Shown here: piece after piece, positions 821 to 32,052 of the stretch
Layout: every line of letters starts with the position of its first letter
Numbering within the stretch: the first letter of the stretch is position 1
NCBI GenBank assembly: GCA_001724265.1
Contig: MEDY01000263.1
Span: forward strand, 1 to 53,238
DNA from: Rhizaria sp. SCN 62-66
Taxonomy: Eukaryota
DNA: 53,238 nt
Direction: 5' to 3'
Position numbers and translations under genes: made by a program
Notes under the pieces: generated by a model
Databases searched by the model: none
What the model was told of the DNA's origin: nothing
What the model saw: only the letters and a program-made list of their open reading frames with translations

Positions 821-2862
821 TTACTTCTTAACGATCTTGGAGCCGAGGTAGATACGCTTGAGCAGCGCGGTGTGCTTCCATGGATGCTGCTTACCCTGGG
901 ACACGGTGTAGACGTCCTTAGCAACATGGAAGATAATCTCCTCGATATGCATGTCAGTACGCGGAAAATACTTCATAAGCGAGTTTGTGAACATACCGTT
1001 GTCCTTGTTCTCATCAGACCCGTCGCCGGCCGTGAAGCCGGGCGCCGCCGAGAGAACGACCATCGACGAACCGGTTGGGTATAACGCGGCGAGCCCCGTC
1101 TTGGCCGGGGCCGCGGCGGCACCGCCGGCGCCGGAGCCGCGGCCGCGCTGCTTGAGCTTCGGCGGCGGCTTGAACGGGTTGTTGCGGCACGCATCAAGGA
1201 TGATGATGTTGGTGTTGCAGTGGTCCTCCATCGACTGGAGCACGAACTGAGACGACATGTAGCCCGAGAGCGCGTCCTCGGTGGCGTCCTTGGCGGTGAA
1301 GCCGTCGGCCGAGAGTTCAGCCGAGGTGAAATTACCGTGCATGAGGTAGTTCGACCCCTTGATCTCAATCGCGTGGCCCGCAAAGAAGAAGAACGCGACA
1401 CAGCCGTCGTCGATCTTCTCACGCGCCTTCAGCCTCTCAACGAACTTGGCGACGACAGCGGCGAACTCGTCGTACGTCATCACGTCGAGCGCAGTTACGA
1501 CGTTAAACCCCAGCGCCTTGAGCTCGCGCGTCATCGCCTGTGCGTCGTTGTACGGGTTCTTGAGCGTCGCACCGGGCTGGATGTACTTGGAGTTTCCCAC
1601 CACAAGCGCCTCCTTGGCCGTGATCTGCATCACATCCGCGGCATCCACAGCGCCACCGGGGGCAGCGCCGTTCTCACGCGTGTACATGTCCAAGAACGCC
1701 TCCGAGGTCAGGTCAAACCCGGCGAGCACGGCGGCGTGCTGTGCGTCGGTCACGCCGAGGTCCTTGCGCGCTTTCCGCAGCAATTCCTGCTCTTTGGAGG
1801 AGATTTCGCCGTCAAACAACGCCATCGCGAGGAACTCCTTATACTTGGCCAGCGCAGCGGCGTCGGCGCCGCGCTCTTCCTTGCGAGGGGCTGTGAGCGT
1901 GATGCAGGAGGCTTTGCCGCCGCCGGAGCCGCAGTCGCAGTAAAAGTCCTGCACTCCAACGAATTCCTTGCGGTGCGATTTGTGGTTGCACGCCTGGCAC
2001 GTCTCGCAGACGCCGAAGTCGCCGCCGGCCGCGGCGGAGCATTCGACGCACTTCCACCACTTCTGCTTGTGGAAGTTGGCGCCCGTGGCCGTGAAGGTGC
2101 ACATCCCGTCCTTAACGGCGCGCGCGATAGCGGCGGGCATGTCCTTGGGCCCCGTGAGCGAGCCGGCGCGGGAGCCGCCTTCGAACATGTCATCGTGGTC
2201 GTGGCCCGCCTCCGCAGCCGTGGCGGGGGCGGCGGCGGCGGACGTGTCGTCGATGGTGATGCCGGCGAGCGTGCGCGCAAGAGCGAGGTCGGGGATCGCG
2301 CCACCGCGCGCGGCGTCCTCGGCAGAGCGGCCCTTCTGGTCGCGGATTCCGACACCGGCACCCGCGGCAATGAGCGCGTCGACGATCTCGGCGTTGCGCT
2401 TCTCGGCCGCGGCAATAAGCGCGGTCTGCCCGTCGGAAGCCTGCTGGTCGACATCGGCGCGCGCGGCGAGGAGAATCTCCAGCGCGGGGAGGTTGTTGCG
2501 CTGCGAGGCGACAAGCAAAGGGAAATCACCCAGGTCGTCGGTCGCGGACAGGTCGGCGCCCGCGGCGATCACGGCGGACATGTAACGCTCGCGCTTAAGG
2601 ATGTAGGCCGTCGCCATCAGCGCGGTCCACTTGTCCAGGTCGGAGATGACGTTAGGTGTGGGCGCCACTGCGAGCTGCGCTGCGAACGTGTCGAAGTCAT
2701 CGCAGTCCAGCGCGTCGAAGAACTGAGAAGGGGATAAACGCGAGTGATTTCAAAAACGCAAGAGTGTGTGAGTACTGGGTAGGCATGAAGTAAGAGTGCG
2801 CGCAGACAAAGGGCTGACAGGAGAAAGAGACGTACCGCTCCGTTGTTGAAAGACGGAGGCAT
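821..2862 (-). CDS. Ankyrin repeats + UBR-type zinc finger + TerB-like helical domain + Peptidase C14 caspase/paracaspase-like protease; exons 2862-2836 and 2722-821
   Basis: Ankyrin motifs (GDFPLLVAS, GQTALIAAAE). UBR-box pattern CTF..TG..F..Q.WW.C..C...GVC..C..C.H..H...FYCDCG. Helical segment ALFDGEISSKEQELLRKARKDLGV. Caspase motifs ALVVGNSKY, LKNPYNDA, FFFAGHA (His), ILDACRNNPF (Cys), SAAPG..A.DG, GKQHPW. ATG 2862 splices in phase 0 to the long ORF. Ends TAA. Confidence 0.9.
2723..2835 (-). other. Spliceosomal intron (113 nt, phase 0) of the caspase-like gene
   Basis: GCG|GTACGT donor and CTTCTCAG|TTC acceptor. The join gives MPPSFNNGA-FFDALDCDD in frame and replaces the GTG start in the ORF track. 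Confidence 0.85.
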
Positions 2863-3360
2863 GGTGCAACGAGAAACGGGAGAAACCGGAGCTTAACGCT
2901 TGGTTCTGTGTCGCCGGTGTAGGTTCGTACTAATCACGGAAGCGCTTAACTAAAAGGGGGAAATAGACAATAAGTCTTCTTCAAACGCAGAGAAGTGTCC
3001 ACTTGTCGTTTGACAGAGCCATCAGCGCCCTGCAGCAATGCACATTTGAACGAGCTCTGGGGGGCGAGGCTGGCTTGGCGGCTAACGCCCGAGGAGCGTT
3101 TCAAATGTGGCTGGTGATTCAAAGAGTCTGTTCTAGGTCATAAGTCCGTCATCGGTTAAATTCGTCCAGGTATGCTATTTAATAGACTTCTAGAAGTACT
3201 TTTCTCATTTGGAAATTTGATTATCTTTTCCTACCCCCCCACAATCCAGGCTCTCCTCAGGCTCGTTTCGCCCAACAACGACCACAGCAAACTTCACTTG
3301 TTTTCCTCTCTGACTGTCTCTAGAGTGCTTCGCAAGCGCTCTCTTTGGCCCCGCCCGGCA

Positions 3361-6300
3361 ATGAGTAACTTTAAGAGTCAGATGGTGACTCCCGCGCTGG
3401 ACCCGAACACTCAGACGCCCGCGATGGGCGTGAATAACTACGAAGACACCGTCCGCTTCAACTTCGGCTCCGTCCGCGGCCGCGTGATCCGCAACCCCAC
3501 AGCAGCGGCGGCCGAGATGGGCGCGCACTTCCCCGAGCCGCCCTGTGCCGACGCCACGCCCGAAGTCCGCTTGGGCGTGCTCAAAGAGCGCGAGCGCAGC
3601 TGGGGCAAGCCCAACACCGTCCGTTACCAGCAACTCCCTACTCGTGCCAGCACAGCCCGCGCCGAGCGCCCGGCCTCCGCCAGTTCCCGTCGTCCGTCCT
3701 TGTCATCGGGCTACGGCGACGAGGGCTACGGCTACGGCGACGCCGCGCGCGACGACGACCAGGAGGCCGCCCAACGTCTGCGCGAGTTAGAGCAGGAGGT
3801 CTCCGCTCTGAAGCTCGCACGCGCGGAGGCCGAGCACGCCGCCGCCGCCGCACGCATCTATTCCGCGCCCTCATCCTCATCCTCTGCCGCTGCGCTTAGT
3901 GCAGTGTGTCCGGACGTGCTCGCGCCCGAGCTGGCCGTCGCGACGCGGCTGGTGGGCTCACTTGACGCGTCGGCGTCGCCGCGCGCTCTGCAGGCAGCGC
4001 TGGACAGGCTAGCTGAGCTGCGCCGCGCCAACGCGGACACACTCGCGCGCACTGAGGCGCGCCTCTATGGGCCCCCGCAGCATGGCGGCGCTGGCGCTGC
4101 TGGTGCTGGTGCTTTCAGCCACGCACACGCGGCCTCTGTCGCGCCCACTGCGTCCTCTTCATCATACAGCTACGGTGGCTACGGCGACTCGCAGTCTGCC
4201 GGGAATCCCAGTCACGGGTACCCCATGAATGCCGACGAGCTCGCCGACCCGTCCGCGATGCGCACACAGTACCCCGAGGCCGCGCCCGCCGCTTTCACCC
4301 GGCGCCCCGGAGGCGCCGCGGCCGATGCGCGCGCCGCCCGCGCCGTCGCTGGCCCCGCGTCCGCCGAGCGCTGGCGCAAAGCCGTAACCGTGCCGCAGCC
4401 GTTTTCCTTTGCGGCGCGCGATGAGGGCGCGCGCGTGGCCACGGCGGCCGCGATCGACGCGCTGCGGCCTCCGTCGGCCGCACAGACCGCCGCGCCCGGG
4501 GCTGGCTCCTCGGCGGCGGCTGCGGCGGCGGTAGCGAATCCGGGGTCGTTCGCGCAGCAACTGCGCGGGGACACACACCGCGGCGGCGGCGGTGCACAGC
4601 GCCACAACACCACCGCCGCTGCAATGGGCCGCGAGCAGAAAGAGCAGGAGCAGCACGACGATGACAACGACGAACCGGACGAGGGCAGCCACGGCGGCCA
4701 CGGTGGCTTCGGCAGCGGCTCCCGTGGTGTCACGCTCACTCGCCCTACAACGGCTCCAGCAAAGCCCTCTCCCGCCTCCGCCTCCGCTGCTGCTCCTGCG
4801 TCCTCCGCAACTGCGACTGAGAGCGAGGACGAGGACGAAGGCATTGTTTCCGCCGCCGCCGCAACCGCCGCCGCGCTGGCCGCCGCGGGTGACTCTTCCC
4901 TTCCCATTGCCAAACGCCGCTTTCTCGCCGACCTTGCCGCACGCAAGGCCGCCGAGGAATCCCAGCTGCGCGCCCGCTTCCGCGCCCGCGCCGTGCCCGC
5001 CGCGGTCCGCGAGCCCCGTTTGGCGGCACTCGAAGCCCGCCGCGCCGAGGCCGCTGCGGCGCGCACTGCGGCGTTCCGCGAGGAGCTCGCTGCGAGCATG
5101 AAGCCGTTCGCGTTCGACGAGCGCGACGCGGCGGCGGCGGCGGAGAAGGCGGCGCGGGAGGGCAAACAACAGCAGCCGCGGCGACCGCAGTCTGCGACGC
5201 CGCCTGTGCGCGCGTTCGGCTCCTCTACTGCGCGGCTGGGCGGCCCGCCTGTGGTGATGGGCGCGCCAGTGTGGGCGCACAGCAACGGCGGCGATGACGC
5301 GAAAGATAAGGATGACAAGGACAAAGAGGAGAAGAAGCGCCCACTGGGTGCGATCCCGTGGGCGTCGCGCGTTGAGCTGCTCGGGGCCAAGACCGCGGCG
5401 GACGAAGCAGAACGCCGTGCGCGCATTAAAGAGCGCGCGCAGTCGTTGTTGGAGCAGGCCGCGCTGCCGGAGCGCATGGCCGCTGATGCCGCGCGCGCCA
5501 AGTCCCGCAAGGCACTCGCCGACGCCGAGGCCGCTGTCGTGCGCGCCGCCTCCGGGGGCGGGGAGACCGGGCTCGGCGGTGACGGCAGTCAAGGCGGTTT
5601 CTCGCAGTCGCGCGGTGTGTCACTGCTTGCCCCCGCCGGCGCCGGCGCCGCTATGGACGGCGCTGTGGCGGATGCGGTGATGGACAGCTCATCGAGCAGC
5701 GGTTCGCGGTTGCGACGTGGTCGGCGGCAGCCGTTTGACTGGGACGCTGATCTGACGTTCAAGCCCCGCGTGCGGTCCTCAGTGCCGGACTACAACGCCC
5801 TCAAGGGCAAGTTCGACGCCGAGCTGGAGGCACGGCGGCAGGACTTGCGCCCGACGCGGCCTGTCGCTTTCTCGTTCGAGGCCCGCGAGGCGGCCGCCGC
5901 GGCTGTGGCGGCTGCTCGGGAGGAAGAGGCCGCGAAACAGCGCGCCGCGGCGGCTGCAGCGGAGCGGGAGGCCGCCAAGACGCGCCCCGTGCGCGTGGCG
6001 CCCGGAAAGGGCGCGGTGAAGCCATATCAGAGCGACCCGGCCGTGGTGCGCGCGATCGAGGAGCGCCGCTCGCGCGCCGCCGAGGCAGCGCGAGAGCGTG
6101 AAGAAGAAGCAGCGGCGGCGGCGCGGATCAAGACGGCTGAAGCGCGGCGCAAGCTTGCAGGGTACTTTGCGCGACAGGGCGTGGACCCGCGGACGGGGAA
6201 GCGCGTCGACGAGGCCGCTGCGGAGGCCGCGGTGGCTGAGGGGGACGCGCAGGCCGCCGAGGGCGACGGCGAGGGGGAGCATGGAACGCGCGGGATCACG

Positions 6301-6627
6301 ATCACGCGGCCCGGCAGTGCGCCTGCAACTGCAGCCGCGGCTGCGGGCAAGGCAAAGAAGGCTGAGGCTGATGACCCGGTGGCGAGCGCGATGCGCGCGA
6401 GCGCGGCTGCGTGGCGCGAGCAACGGCGCGCGATGAAAGCCCGTGTGGCGCAGAGGCCGCTGCTGGTCGAGAGCGACTGTGACGACACGAAGCGGCTCGA
6501 GCGGCGCCGTCGTGCGCTGCTGTCCGTCAAGGACAGTCTGGACCGGCAGGGACTAACGAACTATGACCGCTGGTTTGACCGCGAGGAGCTCATCCTACTC
6601 GGACTCGCCGATGCCTTCAGTGTCTAA
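3361..6627 (+). CDS. FAM161: FAM161-family (UPF0564) centriolar/ciliary microtubule-binding protein
   Basis: Motifs VTVPQPFSF, RFRARAVPAAVREPRL, LAASMKPFAF, ERRARIKERAQSLLEQAALPERM, TFKPRVRSSVPDY, PTRPVAFSF, RVAQRPLLVE. ATG 3361 is preferred because the ORF extension from 3172 looks intronic or UTR-like. Ends TAA. Confidence 0.8.
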   Translation: MSNFKSQMVTPALDPNTQTPAMGVNNYEDTVRFNFGSVRGRVIRNPTAAAAEMGAHFPEPPCADATPEVRLGVLKERERSWGKPNTVRYQQLPTRASTARAERPASASSRRPSLSSGYGDEGYGYGDAARDDDQEAAQRLRELEQEVSALKLARAEAEHAAAAARIYSAPSSSSSAAALSAVCPDVLAPELAVATRLVGSLDASASPRALQAALDRLAELRRANADTLARTEARLYGPPQHGGAGAAGAGAFSHAHAASVAPTASSSSYSYGGYGDSQSAGNPSHGYPMNADELADPSAMRTQYPEAAPAAFTRRPGGAAADARAARAVAGPASAERWRKAVTVPQPFSFAARDEGARVATAAAIDALRPPSAAQTAAPGAGSSAAAAAAVANPGSFAQQLRGDTHRGGGGAQRHNTTAAAMGREQKEQEQHDDDNDEPDEGSHGGHGGFGSGSRGVTLTRPTTAPAKPSPASASAAAPASSATATESEDEDEGIVSAAAATAAALAAAGDSSLPIAKRRFLADLAARKAAEESQLRARFRARAVPAAVREPRLAALEARRAEAAAARTAAFREELAASMKPFAFDERDAAAAAEKAAREGKQQQPRRPQSATPPVRAFGSSTARLGGPPVVMGAPVWAHSNGGDDAKDKDDKDKEEKKRPLGAIPWASRVELLGAKTAADEAERRARIKERAQSLLEQAALPERMAADAARAKSRKALADAEAAVVRAASGGGETGLGGDGSQGGFSQSRGVSLLAPAGAGAAMDGAVADAVMDSSSSSGSRLRRGRRQPFDWDADLTFKPRVRSSVPDYNALKGKFDAELEARRQDLRPTRPVAFSFEAREAAAAAVAAAREEEAAKQRAAAAAAEREAAKTRPVRVAPGKGAVKPYQSDPAVVRAIEERRSRAAEAAREREEEAAAAARIKTAEARRKLAGYFARQGVDPRTGKRVDEAAAEAAVAEGDAQAAEGDGEGEHGTRGITITRPGSAPATAAAAAGKAKKAEADDPVASAMRASAAAWREQRRAMKARVAQRPLLVESDCDDTKRLERRRRALLSVKDSLDRQGLTNYDRWFDREELILLGLADAFSV

Positions 6628-11583: not shown

Positions 11584-12420
11584 TTAGATCGTCACTGTGC
11601 TGGGGAGCCCGTACACCGGAGTGGGCACTGCCGGCACAGCAGGCACAGCCGGCGGCGGCTGGGGCGTCTGCAGCGGCGGGTGCAGCGCATACGCCTCTGC
11701 ATCAGCCGCAGACCGCGGCGAGGGTGCCGTGTCGTACCGTGGTGACTCAGCCGAGTGCACCTTAGCGTTCTGCAGCGGCTCACCGAGAGGGGGGACGTGG
11801 ACCTTGGCCTTAGAGGGGTCGTATTGGGCCTCGCGCGGCGGGACGCGGCCGCCGGCGCGGCGCGGAGGCACCTTAACGCGGTCGTCGGCCAGAGCCTTGA
11901 AGATCTTGTTGAAGCGGTTGACTGCGATGATGACCTGAACGGCGCGGCGGAGCTTGCGCTTGGCCTGGAGAAGCTTGATGCGGTCGAGGTGATCCTGGCC
12001 GAACGCGCGGTCAGTGGCAATGCCGTCGGCGACCCACGGGTGCTTGAGGACTTGAACAGACGTGAGGCGCTTGGCGGGGTCAACGGTGAGGAGACCGCGA
12101 ACTAGGTCTTTGGCTTCGGGGGAAATGTCGTCCCAGTAAGGAGCGGGGAAAGAGTAGTCGCCACGCTTGATCTGCTCGTAGAGCTTCGCGGTCTGCTCGT
12201 GGTAAAACGGCGGGAAACCGCAGAGGAGGATGTAGAGGATGACCCCGATGGACCACAAGTCGACCTGCTTGGTGTAGGGCTCGTTCTTGAGGATTTCGGG
12301 CGCAACGTAGCCGGGGGTGCCGCACGCGGTGGTCATCTTGCTGTGGCCCTTGCGCGACTTGGCGAGGCCGAAATCGGTGATCTTGACGGGCGCCATCGCC
12401 GACTCGTTCTGGTAGATCAG

Positions 12421-12451
<31 letters not shown>

Positions 12452-12888
12452 TTGATCGAGTGTAAGTAGTGGATTGCACTGATCAAATCTCTGACGAGCT
12501 CAGACGCCTCGCGCTCGGAGTAGGACCCCTTGGCGACGATGCGGTCGAACAGCTCGCCGCCGGTCAACAGCTCCATCACCATGTAGATGCGCTTGGGCGT
12601 CTCGTAGATCTCGAACAGACGCACGCAGTGGTCGTGTGTGATTTGACGCATGATGCGCACTTCGTCGTACACGACGGCCAGCTCTTCGTCAGTGATGTTG
12701 GTCTTCTTGACAACCTTGACGGCGAACTCAGCGCCGTCAGCCTTGCGCACGGCACGCTTGACGGTCGCAAAGCTGCCCGCGCCGAGCTTGTCCTTGATAT
12801 CGTAGAACTTAGCGATGTCGTCGGTGCGCGTGCGCTTGGACGCGGGCGTCGTTGTTGTCGACGACATGCACCCCATGGAGTTGCCCAT
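11584..12888 (-). CDS. Ca2+/calmodulin-dependent protein kinase (CaMK1-like), probably N-myristoylated
   Basis: LGAGSFATV, AVKVV, HRDLKPEN, DFG, TACGTPGYVAPE, DLWSIGVILYILLCGFPPF. CaM-binding-like helix AKRKLRRAVQVIIAVNRF. N-terminus MGNSMGC. Ends TAA. Confidence 0.93.
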
Positions 12889-13480
12889 TGTGCGGTGAAC
12901 GGCAGACGCAAGGGCGCGGGAAAAAAGCTGCTAAGAGGGACTCGAGCCGGAGGTTCAAGGAGAAAGGCGAAAGAGGGGGAGAGAGTGCTGCGAGGAAGAG
13001 GTGCAGCAAACAGGAGAGGAGCAAAGTGAGATTTTAAAACCGTTATGAAATAAGAACTTCACGGTATATTTATGCTCCGTGATCAAAATAGATGAAAATA
13101 TCGTTATCTTTTTAACCAATACACAAGATGAAATTCCATTCTGACGACTGAAGGAAGCGCATATCACATCCGCGCCCATGCTCTTCGGGTACCACTTGCT
13201 CGCTGCAAGCCGACTGGCCGGACGATTTTTAGGAACTGGACTGCTTTTGTTCGAGATTGCTTCGTCAGCCTGGCTGTTATTGCCAACTCTACAGGGCATT
13301 CCTGCGGCCGTAGTTAGTGCATTTGACGCTAATTTCAGTCATATTACAAGTTGTCAGTACTCTTTACTTTTGCGGTATCTCACCAACTGCTCTGCAATGC
13401 CCTCGTTTTCTTCTTGCTTTGTTCTCCTTTTCTCCCTGCTCCTCTGACTTCTGCATGCTCAGTGATTCTTGGCTGTCACC

Positions 13481-14835: not shown

Positions 14836-17800
14836 ATGGTTCCTGCTGCCTCGGGAACAAGTCCCTGTCGAGGCAGGGGCGCAGCAGGGCTGCTTTGGCT
14901 TTTCCTCGCCGCCGTCGCCGCGCTCGTGTGTGCCGCCGCCGACGTCGATATCATGCAGCCCATCGCCACTACCCCGCCCCCGGTACGTTCTATCTTCATA
15001 TCGCAGTGCGATTCAGTCAATCAAGCGTTTTCCTTGGCAGATGTGACCGAGTAAATCTCACCTTCCATCCACCTTGCTCTTCGCTTCCTCCTGCGCTTTT
15101 GACTCAATATCTCTTCTCGACTGCAATGATTTGACTTCTGACTACGCGACCGTGTCGTTTGAGTTTAGTTCCCCGAGGCCGAGCCACATCCGCGGCCTCC
15201 ACTGCGTTTAGCGCGCAGTTTCACGGGTCCCGTCCCGACCAACACCTTCGGTCTGAACCTGCTTGTCGGCGAAGGTGACATGCCTCTCTACGCCCAGCCC
15301 TACACTCTGCGCGCACTCGCCACAGGCCCGCGCGGCATCGTCGTCTCGCAGACCGACGCGCGCGTGCTAGGCCCCTCAGTCGCCGGCGACCGCGCGCGCA
15401 CACGGTACTACCTCGCACCGTTCACAGTCGCTCTCGGTGTGACCGCTGCTGAAGCGAGTCAAACCGCACTGCCCGCGGTGCGCCGGTTCGAGGTCGAGGC
15501 GCTGGACACGTTCGCCGCGCGCATTCACTTCCCACTCGCTCCCACTAACGCAAGCACAAGCGCAAGCGCTAGTGAGAGTGAGAAACCTGTATTAGGCGGC
15601 GCGTCGCTGCGAGTGCCGGTGGTGCGAGGCATGGCATACGTGACCGCCGAGTTCACACAGGCAACGCCCGTGATATTCTCGGAAGCCGTGGTTCTGACCG
15701 CAAACGGCCGCCCCGCGCCCGGACCTGGCTCCCCGCTGTCGTTAAGCTGGAAGCCTGTTGTGACGGGGAAACCTGAGGGCGCGCGCGTGTGCGAGGTTGA
15801 GTTAGGCTTCAACAACGGGCAAACGTGGCTGTTGTTCCTCTTCACACCGGCCGGCGCCCCCGCGCCCCACGCGTTATTGCACAAGTCGCGGTGGGGCGCT
15901 GACGCAGCAGCGCGCGCCCGCGGTGATGAATCCCCCGTCGGGCTCGGTTACGCGTCGGCGTTGATGGCAGACGCACCGTGGACCGGCGTTCTCCGCCTCG
16001 CTAAGCTCGAGCAACGCGCGGGCGCGGAGCCCGCTGCAGTGGTGTCGGCCCGGCGCGAGCTGCTGCGACGCCACGCTGCTGTGGTGCCGCTGGGTGCCGC
16101 GTTGACCGCGAAGATCGAGCGCGGGACAGAGGCTGACACACGGGCCGCCGAGAGGGACGCTGACGCAGGCGCGGGGATGCCGCGGGACTCCACGGCGCCG
16201 ACAGCAACGGATCCTAGCAGCACGGCCGTGTTCTCGCTCCACTGGCGCACGATAGACCTGGGCACCGGCGTCACGGACGCCGACGATACCGTCACGGGTG
16301 ACCGTGAACAGAAGAACCGTGAGCAACAGCTCCTGCATATGGCACTCCCGCACCAGCTGGACGCGATGGGCCTCGAGGCCGCCGACCGGCTTCCGGCGGG
16401 ATCACCGGAGCGCGCCTTGGTGCCAGCGCCAGTGCCAGTGGGCGGGGACGCCGAGCCCCCCGCGGCGGCCGTGACTGCAGCGGCAGTGCGCGAATTAGAC
16501 AGCGAAGTGGATCGAAACCGCGACCGTGACCGCGGCAGCAACCGCAGCCGCGACATCGCGACAGACAGAAACCACGTCCACGCACGCACCCGCGGTGACG
16601 ACGTCTACAACGACAGTGCAATCAGCGCGAACAGTGACTGGCTGACCCAGTGGGCGCAGGCGCGCTCGCGGGCGCCGCAGTCAACTGTGGCCGCTGTGCA
16701 CGCCAGCGAGGCCGCGCACAGGGCTCTGCGGCGCGCCGCCGTGCCGCGGGGGATGCCGCCGAGCCGCCTGCTGGCCACGCGCGCGGAGGGCAGCCCGCTG
16801 CAGCCCAGTGTCGGCAGCGGGATCAGCGGCGCGGTCAGGCGGGCGGCCGCGGTGTTGACAGGCGCCGCAGCGGTCGCTGAGTCGGCTGCCGCGCAGGCCG
16901 CCGCTGAGGTCGCTGCGGAGGAGGCGCGCATGCGAGAGCACCAGCGCCGGTGCATGCTCAAGAGTAAATTGCGTAAGAATAAAAACGGCGGTTGCGCTCC
17001 GGTGCCGGCGCCGGCGACCGTGCTTGACACGCATTTCCGCACGAAAGAGCAGCAAAAGCAGGATAAAGACAAGAAGCACAAGGACAAGCCGCCCAAGCAG
17101 GCACTGCGTGGCTCTCAAAGCGCAACAGTGACTCCGACAAGTCTGTGGCAGCGGTCCACGACCAAGGGCCCTATGCGCGGCGTTATCGGCGGCACGTGGC
17201 GACTCCGGGAGCCCTTACCAGCGCCCGCTGCGACTGCATTGCTGCCCGCGCGCCCCCCGCGGAATGAGACTGCGCGCGCGCTCTTGGACGCGCTTGATCT
17301 CGACTTGGGCGCAACAGGTGCAGCGCAGACACGGCGGTTACTGCGGGCAGTGCGCGCGGACGGCGTGTACACCTCGGGCAAAGAGCTCTGGCGCCACGCA
17401 CAGTTGTGTTTGACCCAGCGCGCTCTGTTGTCGCAATACCCGCCCCAGAGCGAGTCCACGCTGACCGAGCGACTGGCGGTGTTGCGGGACGGCGGTGACG
17501 CCGCGGCGACGCGCGCTGCTGCAGAGGCGGCGGCCCCCGGCGCGCGCGCGACGCCGCTCGGCAAGGGCGACGCGGAGCTGAGGCTGCGGCGGTGCGTCGC
17601 GGCGCTGGCGCTCGGACTGGGGCATTTCCCGCGCGGCGCCAACGGGAACCCGCTGGTGTGGGACACGACGTGGGGCGGTGTCGCTGGGTCGCTTGGACTC
17701 GGCACAAACGCGGATCCGCTGGTTGACTTTGGTTCGTCGTATTATAACGATCACCATTTCCACTATGGGTATGTTGTTGCGGCTGCGGCTGCGTTGGAGT

Positions 17801-20244
17801 CGCTCAGTCCAGGCTGGGCCGCGCGGCCTGCGATCGAGTCCGTGACGGACAAGGCCAAGAACAAGGACCGTGAGAGTGACGCAGCTGCTGTGGCCGTTGA
17901 GACGAGAACGAAGCCACACGGACGCGGTAGCAACGGCGAGTGGGTTGACGCACTGTTGCGAGACGTAGCCAACCCTAGCGACTCATCGTCATCACACTCG
18001 CACCAGACTGATGCGAATGCAAAGAAGCAACAGAGTAGTGTTGACACTTACTTCCCCCGTCTGCGTAATATGGACGTGTTTGCCGGTCACTCGTGGTCAC
18101 AGGGCCTGTTTGGCTCGTTCGACGGCAAAGACCTCGAGTCAACCTCAGAAGAAGTACATTTCCACTACGCTGTCGCTCTCTGGGGCCGCGCTACACAGCG
18201 GCCTGCGGTTGAATTGCTGGGTCGTGCGTTACTCGCAGTCGCGGCGCGAGGGTTCCGGCGGTACTTTTACATCGCGCCGGAGACCGTGAGCAGCACGAGT
18301 GCCGCCGCCGCCGCCACGGGTACCAATATTACCGGTGCAGACGCGCTGACCGTGCACCCGGCTCGTTTCGCGCGCAACTGGGCTCCTGGCATTACCTTCG
18401 AAGGCAAAGTCGACTACGCCACGTGGTTTGGCATCAACCCCGAGTATATCCACGGTATCCAGATGTTGCCCGTGTCGCCCGCGCTGGCTTTCACGCGGCC
18501 ACGCGCGCACGCCGCGGGCGAGTGGGCCGCCGTCGTCGCGCCGGTTGCCGCCGCGCTGAGGACTGCGTGGGCTGGTGTGCTATGGCAGCACCACGGGGTG
18601 ACCGACCCACGGACCGCGTTTACTCACCTGGGCGCGCTTTTGACCCACGACCGACCGGTGGACAACGGAATGAGCCGCACGTGGGCCCTGCTCGCAGCCG
18701 CCACAGCGCCAGAGCCAGCGGCGGGGACGGGCCCGCGCGCGTGGGAGCTCGCCGGGCCGCGCGGGGCCGCGTTCCCCGACCTGTTGCGGGCGGCAGGGAC
18801 GGCCGGGGGCGCGGCGGCGGGCGGAGGGGCGCAGGGCGCGTGGGGGCTCAGGGCGGAGACGGCGCCGGCGGGCAGCCACACTGGCGGCGGGCCAGTCAGC
18901 GATCCAACAACCGACCAAGACAAAGACAATAACACGGACACGGAGGGAGATGAAGACGGCGGTACAGGGCTTGTCGTGCCGGTCGACCGCGAGTTCCCCG
19001 CGCTAGAGCTCGGCATTCCCGTTGATTTCACCGGACACGGCGTCGGCGTCGGTCTCGGCCGCAGCGGCGACGAGTGGTCAGCCATCCACAGCCACACCGG
19101 CGGCGGCGGGACCAGTGACGGAACGTCTGGGACCGACGCGGGAACCCATGGCCCCGCCGTGGTGCCAGGCGTGCACGGCCACGGCGCGGCTGCGGGGGCA
19201 CCGTGGGCTGCGCTGTGGGCGCTGGTCTGCGTCTGCGCGGTGATGGTGCTGGCGCTGGCGGCCGTGATGACGCGGTGGGTGCATGAGCGGCGCCGTGCTG
19301 ACGCAGCGGAACACAAGGTCGAGCAGCTCGCATTGGCCGGACTCGCGCATGGGGACGGTAGCAGCAGGGCAAGAGACGCGCATTTACAGTCGCAGGCACA
19401 GGCGAGGGCTGCGGCTGAATGCGACCCACACGCGAGTGCGTTCCCCAGTCAAGCCCACGGTCAGCATCCGGCTCACGGTCACAGCGCGCAGTCGCAGAGG
19501 GCGGCACGTGCGGGGCTGAGTGCGGGCGTGTTTGGCTCATACGGTGTCGGCAGTAAAACCGCACAACAACAACAACAACAACATCAGCAACAGCAGCAGC
19601 CGTGGACTGCAGACGCAGGCTCTGGCGTCGGAATGAGTGGGTTTGACGGTGGCGCAGGCCACATGGAGCAGCAGTTTGACGACCGTGATCGTGGGGTTGA
19701 GATGGGCCGACTGGGAGCGCCGGGACACACGCCAAACCACAGTCAAAGCCATGACCACAGCCAAAACCTCGACCACAGCCAGAGCCAGAGCCAGAGTCAG
19801 AGTAACGGCAGCGCAACAAGTGCGCGTAACAGTGCAAACAGCGGTGGTGGCGGCGGCGGCGCACTGCCGCCGCTGCCGTCACCGCGCCTGCCCGCACAGC
19901 CCGCCGGTCGGTCCACAGGCACCGCCGCAGGGACCGGCACGGGTCCCACGGGTACCGGAGGCGCAACACTCACGAGTACTGGTGGCGCAGCGCCCACGGT
20001 TGGTAGCGGCAGTGGTGTCGGCGGCGCTGCTGCGGATGCGGAGGAAGTGGAGTTGCGCATCCCCCTCACGCCGCGTCTCGACCACAACAACAACTACGGC
20101 CAAGAAGACGGTGGCCAAAACCAGGCTCAGGGCCAAGGGCAACAGCAGAGGGCGGGGACGTGGGAGTCGCAGTCGCCTTCACCGTCACCGGGCGCGGCGA
20201 GCAAGGCATTCTTGTGGTCGCCGCGGCCCGTGCAGCGTCGTTGA
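14836..20244 (+). CDS. Glycoside hydrolase family 81 endo-1,3-beta-glucanase, type I membrane topology; exons 14836-14982 and 15169-20244
   Basis: PVPTNTF..NL.VGEG..PLYAQPY, PVVRGMAYVT, YTSGK, WDTTWGG, DFGSSYYNDHHFHYGY, GHSWSQGL...DGKDLESTSEE, EYIHGIQMLP. Signal peptide in exon 1 and TM helix at about 19201-19281. Ends TGA. Confidence 0.92.
14983..15168 (+). other. Spliceosomal intron (186 nt, phase 0) of the GH81 gene
   Basis: CCG|GTACGT donor, CTGAC branch-like motif near 15138, TTTAG|TTC acceptor. Joins the signal-peptide exon in frame to FPEAEPHPRPP. Confidence 0.85.
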
Positions 20245-27100: not shown

Positions 27101-29028
27101 TGGCGCGCGCTCTGCTGGATCTGCGCGCGGACCCTAACGTGGTGACCCCGAACCGGCAGCAAGCTGCGTTGCACTGGGCCGCCAACCAAGGTCTCGGTGA
27201 TGCGATCGAATTGCTCCTCGCCGCGCGCGCCAACGTCAACGCGGCCCAGTCTGGCGGGTGGACCCCGCTTCAGGGCGCGGCGGCAAACTGCTTCCCTATG
27301 GCCGTGGACCGCCTGTGCCGCGAGACCGACCTCATGATCGATCTCTCGGGCTCCGACGGCCGGTCTGCTCTGACCCGCGCCGTGGGATCGGGCCCCCGCG
27401 GCACGCCTGCTGATGTGGCAGTCGAATCCGCCGCGCGTGAGAAAATCGTTACTTCGCTCATCGCACGCGGTGCCACGGACCGGCTCGGCGCTGCACTGGC
27501 TCTGGCGGTCTCCCACGGCTGGCTAGGAGCGGCGGAAAAGCTCGCCGCGCTGCACGTCAAGCAGCTTCAGCTGCCCAAGTCCGCCGCGTCGGTCCGCGTG
27601 CTGGAACAGCTACCGGCTTTCGCCCACCCGCAGTCGGTGCAGGCCGTGGCGTCGGGGCTGGCGCAAGTCAGACCGGCGCTGGTGGCTGCCGCGGCCGCCG
27701 CGGTGACGACGGTGGTTGCCGGGCAGCCGCTGCCCGTGGCGCAGCATATCGCATTCAATGTTGAGCCCCCCGCTGCTAACAGCGCCGCGATTACTACTGA
27801 GGCTGAGCCCGCTGCTACTGCTGTCGCGAATGCGAGTGCTAGCAGTGCTGTTGCAGAGGCTGCGAGACCGATTGGCGAGCAATCTTCTGCGACGTCCGTC
27901 ACTGCAGCGTTGCTCGCTGCCGCCGCTATGGCCGCTGCACAGGCCTCTGTCGCCGCAAATTCTGCCAATAGCACCGACAACAACGCTAGTAAGAGTAGCA
28001 AGACGGCTGATTCGGTCCACGAGCAGTCTTCTGTCGCCGACTCTGTGGGTGCTGATCCCAAGTCTAGCGCTGCTACCTCCGGCGCTGACGACTCCTCTTC
28101 TGCGTCCGCGTCCACCTCTGGTTGTGCCTCCGCCTCAGCGTCCGGGTCAGTTTTGGCTCAGTCAGCGCCAACGGCCCAGTCTGCGCTCGAGCTGCTCCGT
28201 GGCCTCGACCCCTCGGACCCGTCCTACGCTGAGCGTCTGGCAGCCGCGGCGGCGGAGTTTGTCGCCAGCGCCGGGCTGACGGCCGCGCGGCCGGGCGACA
28301 ACGGCGGGTTCTACACCGCCGCAATGAGTGAGATGGCTGATGCGGCCAACGCGATCAATGCCTCCAACGCCGCCGCAGCTGTTGCCGCTGCCACTGCAGT
28401 TGCTGCGGCGAACGCGTCGTCACAGGCCCACGCGCAACAGTCGCAGTCTCAGACAAACCAGGCTTCCTCAGCCGCCAGTGAAGGTGAATCAAACACTGTA
28501 TCGGTCGGTGTGAAGGAGTCCCCAGAGGCGCAGGCCGCGCACGCACTGGCGTTGTCTGTTCAGCATCAGGCGCAGATTCACGCGCAAATCCAGGCGCAGA
28601 TGGCTCAGCACCAGCACCAGCACCAACAGCAAATGCAGCAGCAACGCCAAAAGCACAAGCAGATGCATGCGAGTCAGGGCGGCGGTCTGCAGAGTACGTC
28701 TCTTGCCGCGTCGGCACATGCACAGCTTGCGCAACAGCTGATGCTCGCCAACTCGATGCAGCAGCAGCAGGTCCACGCTCAGCAGCAACAGCAGAATCAG
28801 CTGAATCAGCAGCAGCGTAATGGTCCGATCGACAAGGCACAGCAAGCGTTGATTCAGACACACGCTCTTGTTCAAGCGCAGGCGCAAGCTCAGGTTGCCG
28901 CCGCACAGGCGCAGGCGCAGGCCCATGCTCAGGCGCAGGCCCATGCACAGGCGCAGGCGCACAATGGTGGTTACGCCAGTCAACCTGGCTTCCCTGTGCC
29001 TGTCGGACTCGGTTTGCAGCATTTACTG

Positions 29029-29063
<35 letters not shown>

Positions 29064-29086
29064 ACAGCAGCTGCAGCAGCAGCAGC

Positions 29087-29141
<55 letters not shown>

Positions 29142-32052
29142 GCAACAGCAGCAGCAGCAGTCTAGTCAGCAACAGCAGCAGCAGCTGCAGCATCAGCAGT
29201 TCCAACAGCAGCAGCAGCAGCAGCAGGCTCAACAACAGCTTCAGCAACACCAGCAACAGCAACAGCAACAGCAGTACCTTAGCCAGCGTTTGGCTCCGGT
29301 GCACGTCCACGGCGGCGGTGGCAAGAAGGGCAAACAGCCCCGCTCCCCCAACTCCCTTGTCCCTCCCGACGGTGGCAACGGCAACGGCGGCGCTGACGAC
29401 GACTCCGAGTCCGCCGCCTCTGCCAGCAGCAGCCACCACGGAGGTCTGATGCTAGACAACGCTCTCAGCCACCGCTCCCCGCAGACCCTCGCGCTGCCCC
29501 CGGATGGCTCCCCGCGGTCCGGCCCCGTCACGGCGTCGCCGTCGAGCTCCAGCGGTGCGCCCTGGGGCCGCCGGTCTGACCTGTACATGGCGGCGTCACA
29601 GGGCAATCTGGCGCAGATGCGGGCCGTGATGGCGCAGGGCCGCGTCGACATCGACGGCATGGACACCGAAGGCGTGACGGCTCTAGGCGTCGCCGCCTGT
29701 CGCGGCCACACTGCGATCGTTGCCGAGCTCATCCAACACAACGCGAATGTCGACAAGCCGAACCGGTCTGGGTGGCGCCCGTTGCGGTCAGCCATTTCCA
29801 ACGGCCACGTCGGTGCTGCAATGCACCTTGTAGCCGCCGGTGCGCGCGCCGACGAGCTGACTCAGCAGGGCCAGTCACTGCTACACTTTGCCGCCGGGCT
29901 GGCAAACCCGTCGTTGACCCGTTTGCTCGTACAGGCCGGCGCGCCAGTTAATGCGCGTACCCGCGACGCCGGCGCTACTGCGCTGCACTTCGCGGTGACC
30001 GCGGTGACGAAGCGCCGCCACGACCCGCAGAGCGAGGTGTACCTCGACGCGGTGGGCTCTGTCCGCGAGCTTCTTGCAGCGCGTGCTGATCCCTCACTGC
30101 GTGATGCCGCCAAGGGGCGGTCCGCGCTGCACTGGGCGCTTCACGGTGGTTTGACTGATGTCGTCGCGCTTCTGCTGCAAGTGTCACCGGCGACATTGCC
30201 GCAGCTGGTGAACCAGCGCGACGCTCTCAAGCACTCACCGCTGACAATCGCGGTCGACTACTGCGTCCACGCCGCGTCGACCACCCTGGCGATGGCTGCG
30301 GCGGCGCCTGACCCGTCGTCGCCCACGGCCACCGCGGCTCTCTCCGCCGCCATGGCGTCGACCTCGGCCCCGTCCCCGCTGCTGGAGCTGCTGCTCAACG
30401 CACGTGCCAGTCCGGACTCGACCGACGGCCGCGGGTGGAGCGCGCTGCACATCGCCTCCGAGGCCATGCATCCGGGTCTTGTCGGTCAACTCCTCGGCGC
30501 CGGTGCGAACTCCCTCGTCATCACGCCGACGGGTGCGAGCCCGCTGGACGTACTGACTGAGGCGAGTAAGCGCACGCCTGATACCATGCAGCGCCGCATC
30601 GTCGACACTTTGCTGCGGTCAGCGCGTGACGCACGGCTGCTTGCGCTGCAGGCGACCGCGCAAAACGCCGTGGCCGCGTCCGCGCCGCCGCCCAGTGCCG
30701 CGCTTGTTGCCGCCGCCGCCGCAGCTGCTGTCGCCGCTGCATCGCAGGGCGGCGTGCTGCCCCTTGGGTTCCCGAACTCGCTCATGTCCGGTGGCGGCGG
30801 CGGGGGCGGCGCTGGTAACGGCGCTGACGGCGGGGGGTTCAATCCGGCGATCATGGCATCGATGGCGGCCAATATGAACATGAATATGGGTGTGAACTCC
30901 GGTGGGAGCATGAATAACATGAATGGGATGAATAACGTGCAAAACATGAACGCGATGATGCAGCTCAACAACCAGTTGCACAACCAACTCCAGCAAAATC
31001 AGATGAATTCACTCGGAATGGCGGGCATGGGTGTCATGAACGGCGGTATGAACGGTATTAACGGCGGCATGAGCATGAACGGTATGCAAGGCATTTCGGG
31101 CATGAACGGCAGCATGAGCGACGGCATGGGTCCCATGAATGGTATGAACAACATGAACGCAATGTCTGGGATGTCTGGTATGAACGGCATGAATATGCAG
31201 GGCATGAACGGCATGGGTCCCATGACCGGTATGATGCCCATGGGTGGCGGTCTAGACATGAACGGTAACATGAACGGTAGCCTTGGTATGATGGGCGGCA
31301 TGGGCGGCCTTGGTGGCGGTCTGTCCCAAATGAACCCCGGTCTCGGTGGTCCCGGCAATATGAACGGCAACATGAATGGCATGGGCGGTGGTATGGGCGG
31401 ACTTTCGGGTGGTCTCGGTCTGCCTGGACTTGGTGGTTTCCCACAGCCGACGATGCAGTCGCACCCGCAGCAAATGCAACGCCATTCGTCCCAACAGCCC
31501 CCGTCACAGTCGCAATTCAACGATAATAACGGCGGCGGGGGCGGTGGCAGTGGGGGCCAATCTTCCGCTGCTACGTCAGCGTCCGGCACACCGTCGTTCG
31601 GCGCCCTCGGCAGCGGCGGCCCGCTCACCACTCTCAGCGGCTCCGGCATGAACGGCTCCAGCAATAGTCTTAACAATGGCGGCTCTGGCGGTGGTATGTC
31701 CGGTTCTGCCACTGGCTCCGGCTCTGGCTCCCCACACTTGCACCCACATCCGCACGCGCTCGCGCACTCGCACTCGCACGGTGGCGGTCTTGGACAGGCA
31801 CAGGCGCAGTCGCAAATGCGGGCGCAGCCGCAGCCGATGCGGGTGCCGCGGCTGCCGGGCCACCCACAACAGCAGCAAGGGCCGGGACAGCTGGGTCTGA
31901 CTGGCCTCTCAGGGCTTGCGGGGCTCGGCGGCGGCAACGGCGCTGGGTTTAACGGCTTTGGTGCGATGCCGTACCCGATGCTTACACCGCAGCAACAGCA
32001 ACAACAGCAGCAACAACAACAACAGCAACAACAGCAGTCGCAGCAGGAGTAA
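24106..32052 (+). CDS. 2648-aa protein with two ankyrin-repeat blocks, polyQ tracts and a Met/Gly/Asn-rich low-complexity tail
   Basis: Uninterrupted ORF. Many G.T.LH.AA motifs at about 25921-27560 and 29572-30620, Gln tracts at 28560-29275 and 31990-32047, MNGMNGM-type region at about 30850-31440. Ends TAA. Confidence 0.9.
29032..29274 (+). repeat. CAG/CAA trinucleotide repeat encoding polyglutamine
   Basis: Q13-L-Q29 at 29032-29160, including a pure (CAA)n block, followed by further interrupted Gln runs. Confidence 0.95.

Follow-up and report, generated by a model that had tools for sequence, protein, structure and literature searches.

The question raised by one gene of Rhizaria sp. SCN 62-66 is whether a single polypeptide could both recognize the N-termini of proteins and cut proteins. 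The gene lies near one end of a stretch of 53,238 nt (contig MEDY01000263.1, assembly GCA_001724265.1; the whole stretch is called the window below), and specifies a protein of 642 amino acids (aa) in which ankyrin repeats, a disordered linker, a UBR box, one helical unit and a Peptidase C14 (caspase-type) protease domain follow one another in that order. An original prediction, made from the DNA sequence, had placed the gene at 821..2862, given the same protein length and proposed four fused modules; place and length are borne out by a spliced gene model on the minus strand, and the modules, apart from the TerB label of one of them, by the domain analysis described here. What appears to be new is the domain architecture among C14 proteases; the C14 and UBR4-type modules are themselves known. 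The reading we favor, with a confidence that falls a little short of even, is that of an Arg/Lys-specific cytosolic cysteine protease of a protist, with a UBR box that reads free N-termini for recruitment or gating.

The gene model has two exons. Translation begins at an ATG at 2862, and the first exon specifies just nine residues (MPPSFNNGA) before a GT-AG intron, which on the minus strand reads GTACGT, then a pyrimidine-rich tract, then CAG at 2725-2723, has a GC content of 0.50, and has a length (113 nt) that is not a multiple of three. Coding resumes at 2722 and runs to 824, adding 633 aa, with a TAA stop codon at 823-821, and all four modules lie inside this one unbroken exon. Left unspliced, the frame of the ATG closes after 81 aa, so splicing is needed, and the N-terminus that results is similar to that of an ortholog (P0027). 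A 642-codon stop-to-stop frame at 2749-821 (minus strand) has no ATG close to its start. The GC content at third codon positions (GC3) is 0.85 for exon 2 and 0.83 for a neighboring kinase gene. Residue numbers used below are those of the exon 2 product (P0001), to which nine is added for full-length numbering. The motifs quoted in the original prediction (ALVVGNSKY, NPYNDA, FAGHA, LDACRNNPF, KLKQRGRGSG and QHPW) are all present in the translation. The database gene call for this sequence (P0002, 821-2668, minus strand) starts at an internal Met and gives 598 aa, and a GTG-started open reading frame (ORF) gives 615 aa; both are without the intron and the true N-terminus. No protein family backs an antisense frame of 550 codons (1085-2737, plus strand), a shadow frame of the kind usual in GC-rich coding DNA.

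The same architecture is found elsewhere. Word-indexed searches of 5.8 billion proteins, made with the whole protein and with residues 195-633, and each limited to scoring the 8000 candidates with the most words in common, returned the window's own record (P0002) and three further full-length clusters, represented by P0003 (members P0027 and P0028; 56–63% identity), P0004 (48–53%) and P0029 (46%). Another protein, P0142 (639 aa), was found by an exhaustive profile search with the helical unit, and it carries ankyrin repeats, a UBR-like finger, the helical unit and a C14 domain. The whole architecture is conserved in five lineages (the window, P0027/P0003, P0004, P0029 and P0142), and these are referred to as the five orthologs. 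The fusion is rare, and no description of it was found in the literature searched, which did not extend to subscription journals and domain-architecture databases.

The zinc finger is a UBR box. When residues 175-364 were compared with PDB sequences (phmmer, E ≤ 10), all 11 distinct matches were UBR-box proteins, and all were eukaryotic: BIG of Arabidopsis (9qt9, E 3.4e-12), the UBR box of human UBR4 (8j9r and 8j9q, E 1.3e-8 and 2.1e-8), full-length UBR4 entries (E ~1e-6), FBXO11 (E 1.2e-5 and 7.5e-4) and another UBR-type protein (E ~0.01). A feature search of a protein atlas with residues 198-280 retrieved zf-UBR clusters at 0.90-0.92, with 23 of 30 matches in that set, and the atlas clusters bearing zf-UBR are eukaryotic. 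Nine Cys and two His (C208, C225, C228, C239, C242, C245, H247, H250, C262, C264 and C273) would form the zinc ligand set, and all 11 are invariant in the five orthologs. The phmmer alignment pairs Cys1724, Asp1715, Phe1713 and Phe1671 of UBR4 with C273, D263, Y261 and F217 of the window protein; D263 and Y261 are also invariant in all five, and position 217 is always aromatic (Tyr in P0029). A 63-member atlas cluster with a 639-aa representative is a structural neighbor of the finger, and may be this family (a lead).

The passages of PMC10687169 that deal with the human UBR4 box describe three zinc ions, Zn1 held by two Cys and two His, and Zn2 and Zn3 by seven Cys, with Cys1724 (Zn2) standing for a His of UBR1 and UBR2. 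In the same passages, the N-terminal amino group is gripped by Asp1715 together with the Phe1713 backbone, and a first residue that is Arg or aromatic is bound by Phe1671 and Phe1713. Taken together, the ligand set, the PDB matches and the pocket residues identify a UBR box of the UBR4/BIG subtype, and the UBR zinc finger of the original prediction is confirmed (BIG at 3.4e-12, UBR4 at 1.3e-8, 11 of 11 ligands kept) even though the Pfam model misses the window protein. As in UBR4/p600 and plant BIG (8j9q, 8j9r, 9qt9), there are nine Cys and two His with a Cys at Zn2 ('subfamily 2'), but in the window box the loop is longer and the first His is preceded by a shift of one residue. The ligand pocket looks intact in the alignment, and we infer that the box would bind free N-termini. 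The setting also differs. UBR4 and BIG are E3/E4 ligases of about 5000 residues, whereas the window box sits in a 642-aa protease in which Pfam (E ≤ 1) finds no ubiquitin-ligase module (RING, HECT, hemiRING, F-box or PHD).

The protease domain is well defined. Residues 372-624 match Pfam Peptidase_C14 (PF00656) with E 6.9e-29 (101.6 bits against a cut-off of 21.4), spanning profile positions 4-232 of 233, and adopt a caspase fold in the AlphaFold2 (AF2) model, which was built on a 32-sequence alignment and has a mean predicted local distance difference test score (pLDDT) of 79.6; most of this domain is above 90. In the alignment used for the family profile (A2; four orthologs and 28 bacterial relatives, 32 sequences in all), six positions (G449, H450, D510, C512, D393 and D567) do not vary in any of the 32 sequences, nor do they vary among the five orthologs. 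The His and Cys catalytic motifs are thus intact, as the original prediction had it. The flexible basic linker that it placed after the Cys is also real: KLKQRGRGSG is present, pLDDT is below 50 for residues 522-539, and all five orthologs have Lys or Arg there.

Among known structures, the closest relative of the domain is MALT1. Every one of the 10 PDB matches to the domain alone (phmmer, E ≤ 10) is MALT1 (best 4e-5); the family profile scores MALT1 at 5.6e-28 to 3.6e-26, followed by caspase-7 at 2.5e-9; and a Foldseek search with the model places MALT1 first (3v4o, E 6.1e-15, template modeling (TM) score 0.79, target-normalized), with caspase-9 at 7.8e-10. No metacaspase occurs among the 10 phmmer matches, nor among the best 60 of the 182 profile matches (E ≤ 1), nor among the Foldseek matches listed. 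The assignment to the paracaspase and bacterial C14 proteases rather than to metacaspases, already suggested from the quoted motifs, is therefore upheld by all three methods. In the profile alignment to MALT1 (6f7i_A), the partners of D510 and C512 are the D and C of LDMC, that of D393 is the Asp of PLVD, and that of D567 is the second Glu in AEAFE. If the catalytic Cys of MALT1 is taken as C464, the numbering makes these three acidic residues D365, D462 and E500. It is by Asp365, D462 and E500, according to PMC4626109, that MALT1 anchors the P1 arginine. On this alignment, the acidic S1 pocket of the window protein (D393, D510, D567) is the equivalent of those anchors, and we infer that the domain would cleave after Arg or Lys.

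Likeness to human and mouse MALT1 (3v4o, 3uo8, 6f7i) extends to the AGH and LD-x-CR context of the catalytic dyad as well as to the three acidic anchors, but the window protein is only about 20–22% identical to it, and has ankyrin repeats, a UBR box and a helical unit instead of death and Ig domains. Paracaspases are defined by an Ig-like domain directly after the protease and, in type 1, by a death domain and Ig domains before it. The window protein ends 7 residues past the C14 domain, which leaves no place for the MALT1-type Ig-like (Ig3) domain, and Pfam shows no death or Ig domain in it. Metacaspases (types I–III) are likewise C14 proteases of protists and algae, and those of type I have an N-terminal prodomain that is a zinc finger of the LSD1 type or is Pro-rich, whereas the zinc finger here is a UBR box. 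A type I metacaspase with its zinc-finger prodomain was considered and is ruled out, both by the phmmer and the listed profile matches of the domain, none of them a metacaspase, and by the type of the finger. 'Metacaspase-like proteases' have been described as common to bacteria and phytoplankton, with a bacterial origin proposed, in the parts consulted of Choi and Berges 2013 (PMC3734836), which, supplements excluded, mention neither 'ankyrin' nor 'zinc finger' in connection with them.

The nearest proteins outside the ortholog group are bacterial. In the word-indexed searches, they share just the C14 domain (~24–36% identity), and the named ones come from Roseibium, Xanthobacteraceae, Mesorhizobium and Allosphingosinicella. 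A scan of bacterial and archaeal genomes, one per species, matched at least 619 stretches, and 594 of the 619 encode relatives, the best 80 of which are 29–37% identical and belong to Proteobacteria, Acidobacteriota, Bacteroidota and Desulfobacterota. These bacterial 'caspase family' C14 proteins or orthocaspases (Mesorhizobium, Bradyrhizobium, Roseibium, Acidobacteriota, Bacteroidota) are the closest non-orthologs over the whole C14 domain, at 29–37%, and have AGH, LDACRNNPF and Q-x-PW in common with the window protein. They differ in their other parts, which are signal peptides and domains such as PG_binding_1, Sel1, SH3_3, MORN, TPR, FGE-sulfatase and WD40; neither a UBR box nor a helical unit was seen in the bacterial C14 proteins of the two loci inspected. 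Those two loci (L001 and L046) have long matches and had been considered as possible fusions with the helical unit, which is ruled out: they consist of tandem C14 genes or an unrelated C-terminal extension. At L001 (2731-4646), in a metagenome-assembled genome of Desulfobacteraceae, two tandem C14 genes lie next to each other, each with its own signal-like N-terminus. Orthocaspases are described as cleaving after basic residues (PMC6426788).

A maximum-likelihood tree was built from 99 of 102 C14 domains, the other three being dropped because they matched 200 or fewer query positions. It is a quick-search, midpoint-rooted tree without bootstrap, in which every domain other than those of the five orthologs is of bacterial type, with no eukaryotic paracaspase or metacaspase among them. 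The proteins with the full architecture group together as a single clade (Shimodaira–Hasegawa-like approximate likelihood ratio test (SH-aLRT) 99), whose stem is 1.23 changes per column long. The tree shows a single origin of the fusion; it does not show the donor.

The helical unit between finger and protease is the one module whose description needs changing. It had been called TerB-like, and this holds in so far as it is a real, conserved helical unit with a TerB-related sequence; it is not a full TerB domain by threshold, coverage or fold match. AF2 gives it four confident helices at residues 288-351 (pLDDT 84-96 in the full model, 82.5 when modeled alone), and its identity to the orthologs is 33–55%. 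The Pfam TerB model (PF05099) stays below its cut-off of 24.4 bits both for the whole protein (12.3 bits) and for a 79-aa piece (17.7 bits, E 0.0045), and the match is limited to profile positions 80-115 of 118. Pfam ENT (PF03735) is level with it and is also below threshold (17.2 bits against 28.5). Nothing significant was found when a four-sequence profile of the unit was compared with PDB sequences (best E 0.33), and Foldseek gave no PDB match at E ≤ 0.001; its best hits were ENT domains of EMSY and of a trypanosome protein (E 1.3-1.4, TM 0.55), with no TerB entry among the ~40 matches listed, down to rank 50. In the atlas, the best feature score was 0.76, below the level of a lead, and the structural neighbors were mixed, one TerB/ENT cluster among them. 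Over this unit, PADLOC gave weak PDC-S48 matches (E ~1e-3), which are no evidence of a defense role.

Much more was seen when a profile of the unit was run against 1.84 billion representative proteins, of which 618 matched at E ≤ 0.001 and 44 at E ≤ 1e-10. Many of these relatives carry 2-6 matched stretches, against one in the window protein. From the best 100, the eight that exceed 900 aa were set aside; in the other 92, Pfam at E ≤ 0.001 matched ENT in 55, TerB in 37, Tic110 (PF16940) in 29 and DUF533 in 11, with the ENT and TerB models striking identical or adjacent units within individual relatives. Their consensus is a tandem unit, Y...L..A..DG.I...E...L..LR..L.I....H, and this hallmark pattern, common to TerB, ENT and Tic110 units, is also present in the window unit. 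In its relatives, the unit occurs with PARP, PDZ, cNMP-binding/POPDC, ankyrin, SnoaL and HTH_AsnC domains. On sequence comparison, then, the module is one unit of a widespread helical repeat, akin to the second half of TerB, to Pfam ENT and to Tic110, a repeat family that does not seem to be cleanly captured by any one current Pfam model.

At the other end of the protein, the ankyrin module proposed in the original prediction is confirmed by Pfam (Ank_2 E 3.1e-13, Ank E 5.1e-10), by PDB matches to DARPin and ankyrin, and by a confident AF2 fold (pLDDT 92-98). A scan with NCBIfam models was uninformative: its sole matches were partial, in the ankyrin part, to effector models of much greater length, and each fell far short of its cut-off. 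The acidic, Ala-rich linker that follows has a pLDDT below 50 (residues 158-192) and an identity of 8–24% to the orthologs. Its sole conserved element is an S-R-A-G motif, in which R-A-G is invariant in four of four orthologs; in the fifth, P0142, the MAFFT alignment shifts the motif by one column, and by eye a run of S-T-R-S-A fits [ST]-R-[AS]. As an idea, we raise this motif as a candidate site of cleavage after Arg, with a small residue at P1'.

How might such a protein work? It would be a cytosolic multi-domain cysteine protease made from a nuclear gene, with a C14 domain that cuts after Arg or Lys and a UBR box that recognizes free N-termini beginning with Arg or an aromatic residue. The UBR box and the ankyrin repeats may bring proteins with such N-termini to the protease; alternatively, an N-terminus appearing at the UBR box and ankyrin repeats may switch the protease on. 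The helical unit would connect reader and protease, and may mediate self-association or regulation; self-association is raised as an idea because the unit is alone here and occurs in pairs in relatives. Sites of autoprocessing may lie in the basic loop after Cys512 or in the S-R-A-G of the linker. The original prediction had proposed N-degron sensing and autoprocessing at Arg, and both gain plausibility from the acidic S1 pocket and from the conservation of the UBR4-type ligand residues. The biological role may lie in regulated proteolysis, stress, immunity or cell death.

Several observations weigh against this reading. Pfam zf-UBR (PF02207) is silent on the whole window protein (E ≤ 1) and on an isolated 86-aa piece (E ≤ 10), and scores in just one of the five lineages (P0004, 30.9 bits against a cut-off of 25.2), with no match in P0003/P0027 or P0142 (E ≤ 1e-4), or in the precomputed Pfam list of P0029. 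Two further residues of UBR4, E1670 and K1708, are replaced by N and G in the window protein, and AF2 confidence in the UBR region is low (pLDDT 43-59). On the side of the protease, the Ig3 domain, which follows and regulates the MALT1 protease, is absent. In addition, cutting after Arg leaves that Arg on the upstream fragment, so the enzyme's own products need not be UBR4-type N-degrons.

The best-surviving alternative, which we consider somewhat unlikely, is that the UBR box is not a reader of N-degrons and serves as a structural zinc module or a protein–protein interface, as in FBXO11/UBR6, with the ankyrin repeats choosing the targets and other inputs regulating the enzyme. PMC5606531 states that N-terminal signals are not bound by the FBXO11 box, and hence a UBR fold by itself is no proof of N-degron binding; FBXO11 is among the PDB matches of the window finger (1.2e-5). 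The failure of the Pfam model in four of the five lineages and the replaced E1670 and K1708 fit this alternative, as does the spacing of one Cys, which varies among the orthologs. However, the best matches are UBR4 and BIG and not FBXO11, and the Asp that would bind the alpha-amino group is kept in five of five orthologs along with both aromatic pocket residues, despite an identity of 33–53% across the module.

A more specific version, that of the original prediction, in which the enzyme is a sensor-gated protease of cell death or immunity, appears improbable. Here the UBR box would detect new N-termini made by a viral, parasite or upstream caspase-like protease, and binding would drive oligomerization and activation of the C14 domain, followed by a stress or cell-death program. 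Induced proximity is what activates caspases and paracaspases, and mammalian NLRP1 is activated by N-degron recognition of the cleaved sensor. The conserved UBR4-type ligand residues would suit such a role, as would the kinship to MALT1 and other paracaspase-like domains, which are the closest relatives, and the generic PADLOC 'caspase' model matches the protein (E 3.3e-11). Against it, the PADLOC match covers the catalytic domain only and a bacterial homolog scores alike, and Pfam finds no death-fold, NACHT or TIR domain.

It is very improbable that the protease domain is catalytically silent or a scaffold. Pseudo-orthocaspases do exist in bacteria (PMC6426788), and the catalytic His is followed by Ala where the bacterial relatives have Gly; but His450, Cys512 and the three acidic S1 residues are invariant, and C14 is the best conserved of the modules (45–71% identity to the orthologs). 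Finally, an artifact, be it a chimera in the assembly or in the gene call or contamination by bacterial DNA, would fit the bacterial origin of the nearest non-orthologous C14 domains (594 of the at least 619 matched stretches encode relatives) and the truncated, prokaryote-style database call P0002, but is effectively refuted by the placing of four modules in one 633-codon exon, the GT-AG intron, a GC3 that matches that of neighboring eukaryotic genes, the eukaryotic nature of the finger's PDB matches and of the atlas zf-UBR clusters, and the recurrence of the architecture in four other lineages.

Cleavage by caspase-type proteases leaves new N-termini behind, and N-termini are what UBR boxes read. 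To our knowledge, N-end reading and caspase-type cleavage have so far been found in separate proteins, linked via ubiquitin ligases. In its strongest form, the favored reading would make the window protein an 'N-recognin protease' in one polypeptide, with a UBR4-type N-degron reader wired to a paracaspase-like protease and not to a ubiquitin ligase, a claim that we regard as unlikely. If it were true, proteins with Arg or aromatic N-termini might be cut and not ubiquitylated, which would amount to a ubiquitin-independent branch of N-degron biology in eukaryotes; or else the new N-terminus left by a foreign or upstream protease might activate the enzyme, as a compact protist analog of the mammalian route from N-degron to caspase. 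A conserved natural fusion is a 'Rosetta stone' hint that N-end reading and proteolysis can be coupled directly. At 642 aa, the protein is small and tractable as a model for the N-terminal recruitment or gating of a paracaspase-like protease, allows the specificity of a UBR4-type box to be studied outside a 5000-residue ligase, and bears on the domestication of a bacterial-type C14 domain in a protist. A further outcome of the analysis is a widespread helical repeat that current Pfam models do not capture cleanly.

The features of the gene and its larger neighbors are collected in Table 1.

Table 1. Positions in the 53,238 nt window of the parts of the fusion gene and of neighboring genes (residue numbers as in P0001).
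Feature	Positions	Strand	Evidence
Exon 1, ATG + 8 codons	2836..2862	-	sequence; N-terminus resembles P0027
Spliceosomal intron, 113 nt	2723..2835	-	GTACGT...CAG; unspliced frame ends after 81 aa
Exon 2, 633 codons + TAA (P0001)	821..2722	-	translation; GC3 0.85
Ankyrin-repeat module, ~five helix pairs, residues 1-157	2252..2722	-	Pfam, PDB matches, AF2
Disordered acidic Ala-rich linker, residues 158-194	2141..2251	-	AF2, ortholog identity
S-R-A-G motif in linker, residues 184-187	2162..2173	-	ortholog alignment
UBR box, UBR4/BIG subtype, residues 205-276, 9 Cys + 2 His ligands	1895..2110	-	PDB phmmer, ortholog Pfam, alignment
Single helical unit of TerB/ENT/Tic110-like repeat family, residues 286-351, four helices	1670..1867	-	AF2, Pfam, profile search
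Peptidase C14 domain, paracaspase-like, bacterial type, residues 365-626	845..1630	-	Pfam, phmmer, profile, Foldseek
Catalytic His450 (FAGHA)	1373..1375	-	invariant in 32/32; codon checked
Catalytic Cys512 (LDACR)	1187..1189	-	invariant in 32/32; pairs with MALT1 Cys of LDMCR; codon checked
Basic Gly/Ala-rich disordered loop after Cys512, residues 518-542, intersubunit-linker position	1097..1171	-	AF2, orthologs
FAM161A/B homolog (centriole and cilium protein family)	3172-6627	+	
CaMK-type kinase	11584-12930	-	
GH81 beta-1,3-glucanase	15169-20244	+	
Giant ankyrin-repeat protein, 2649 codons	24103-32052	+	Ank_2 E 9e-76

The other long frames of the window specify a CaMK-type kinase, a GH81 glucanase, a FAM161 homolog, an ankyrin protein of 2649 aa, a WD40 protein and a CAF1 nuclease. 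Together with the intron and the matching GC3, these eukaryotic neighbors bear out that the host is a eukaryote, as had been proposed. The best named relatives of the kinase are from ochrophyte stramenopiles (Pylaiella, Ectocarpus, Tribonema, Ascophyllum, Aureococcus and Chrysoparadoxa), and on the strength of this one gene a stramenopile origin of the contig is likely. The FAM161, kinase and GH81 genes hint at a flagellate stramenopile host that uses laminarin-type glucans. Between 32001 and 36000, where no long open frame was found, the GC content falls to 0.45 (0.60-0.70 in the flanks), with strong negative GC and AT skew. Within the giant ankyrin frame, an imperfect GCA repeat of ~81 copies occupies 29028-29274.

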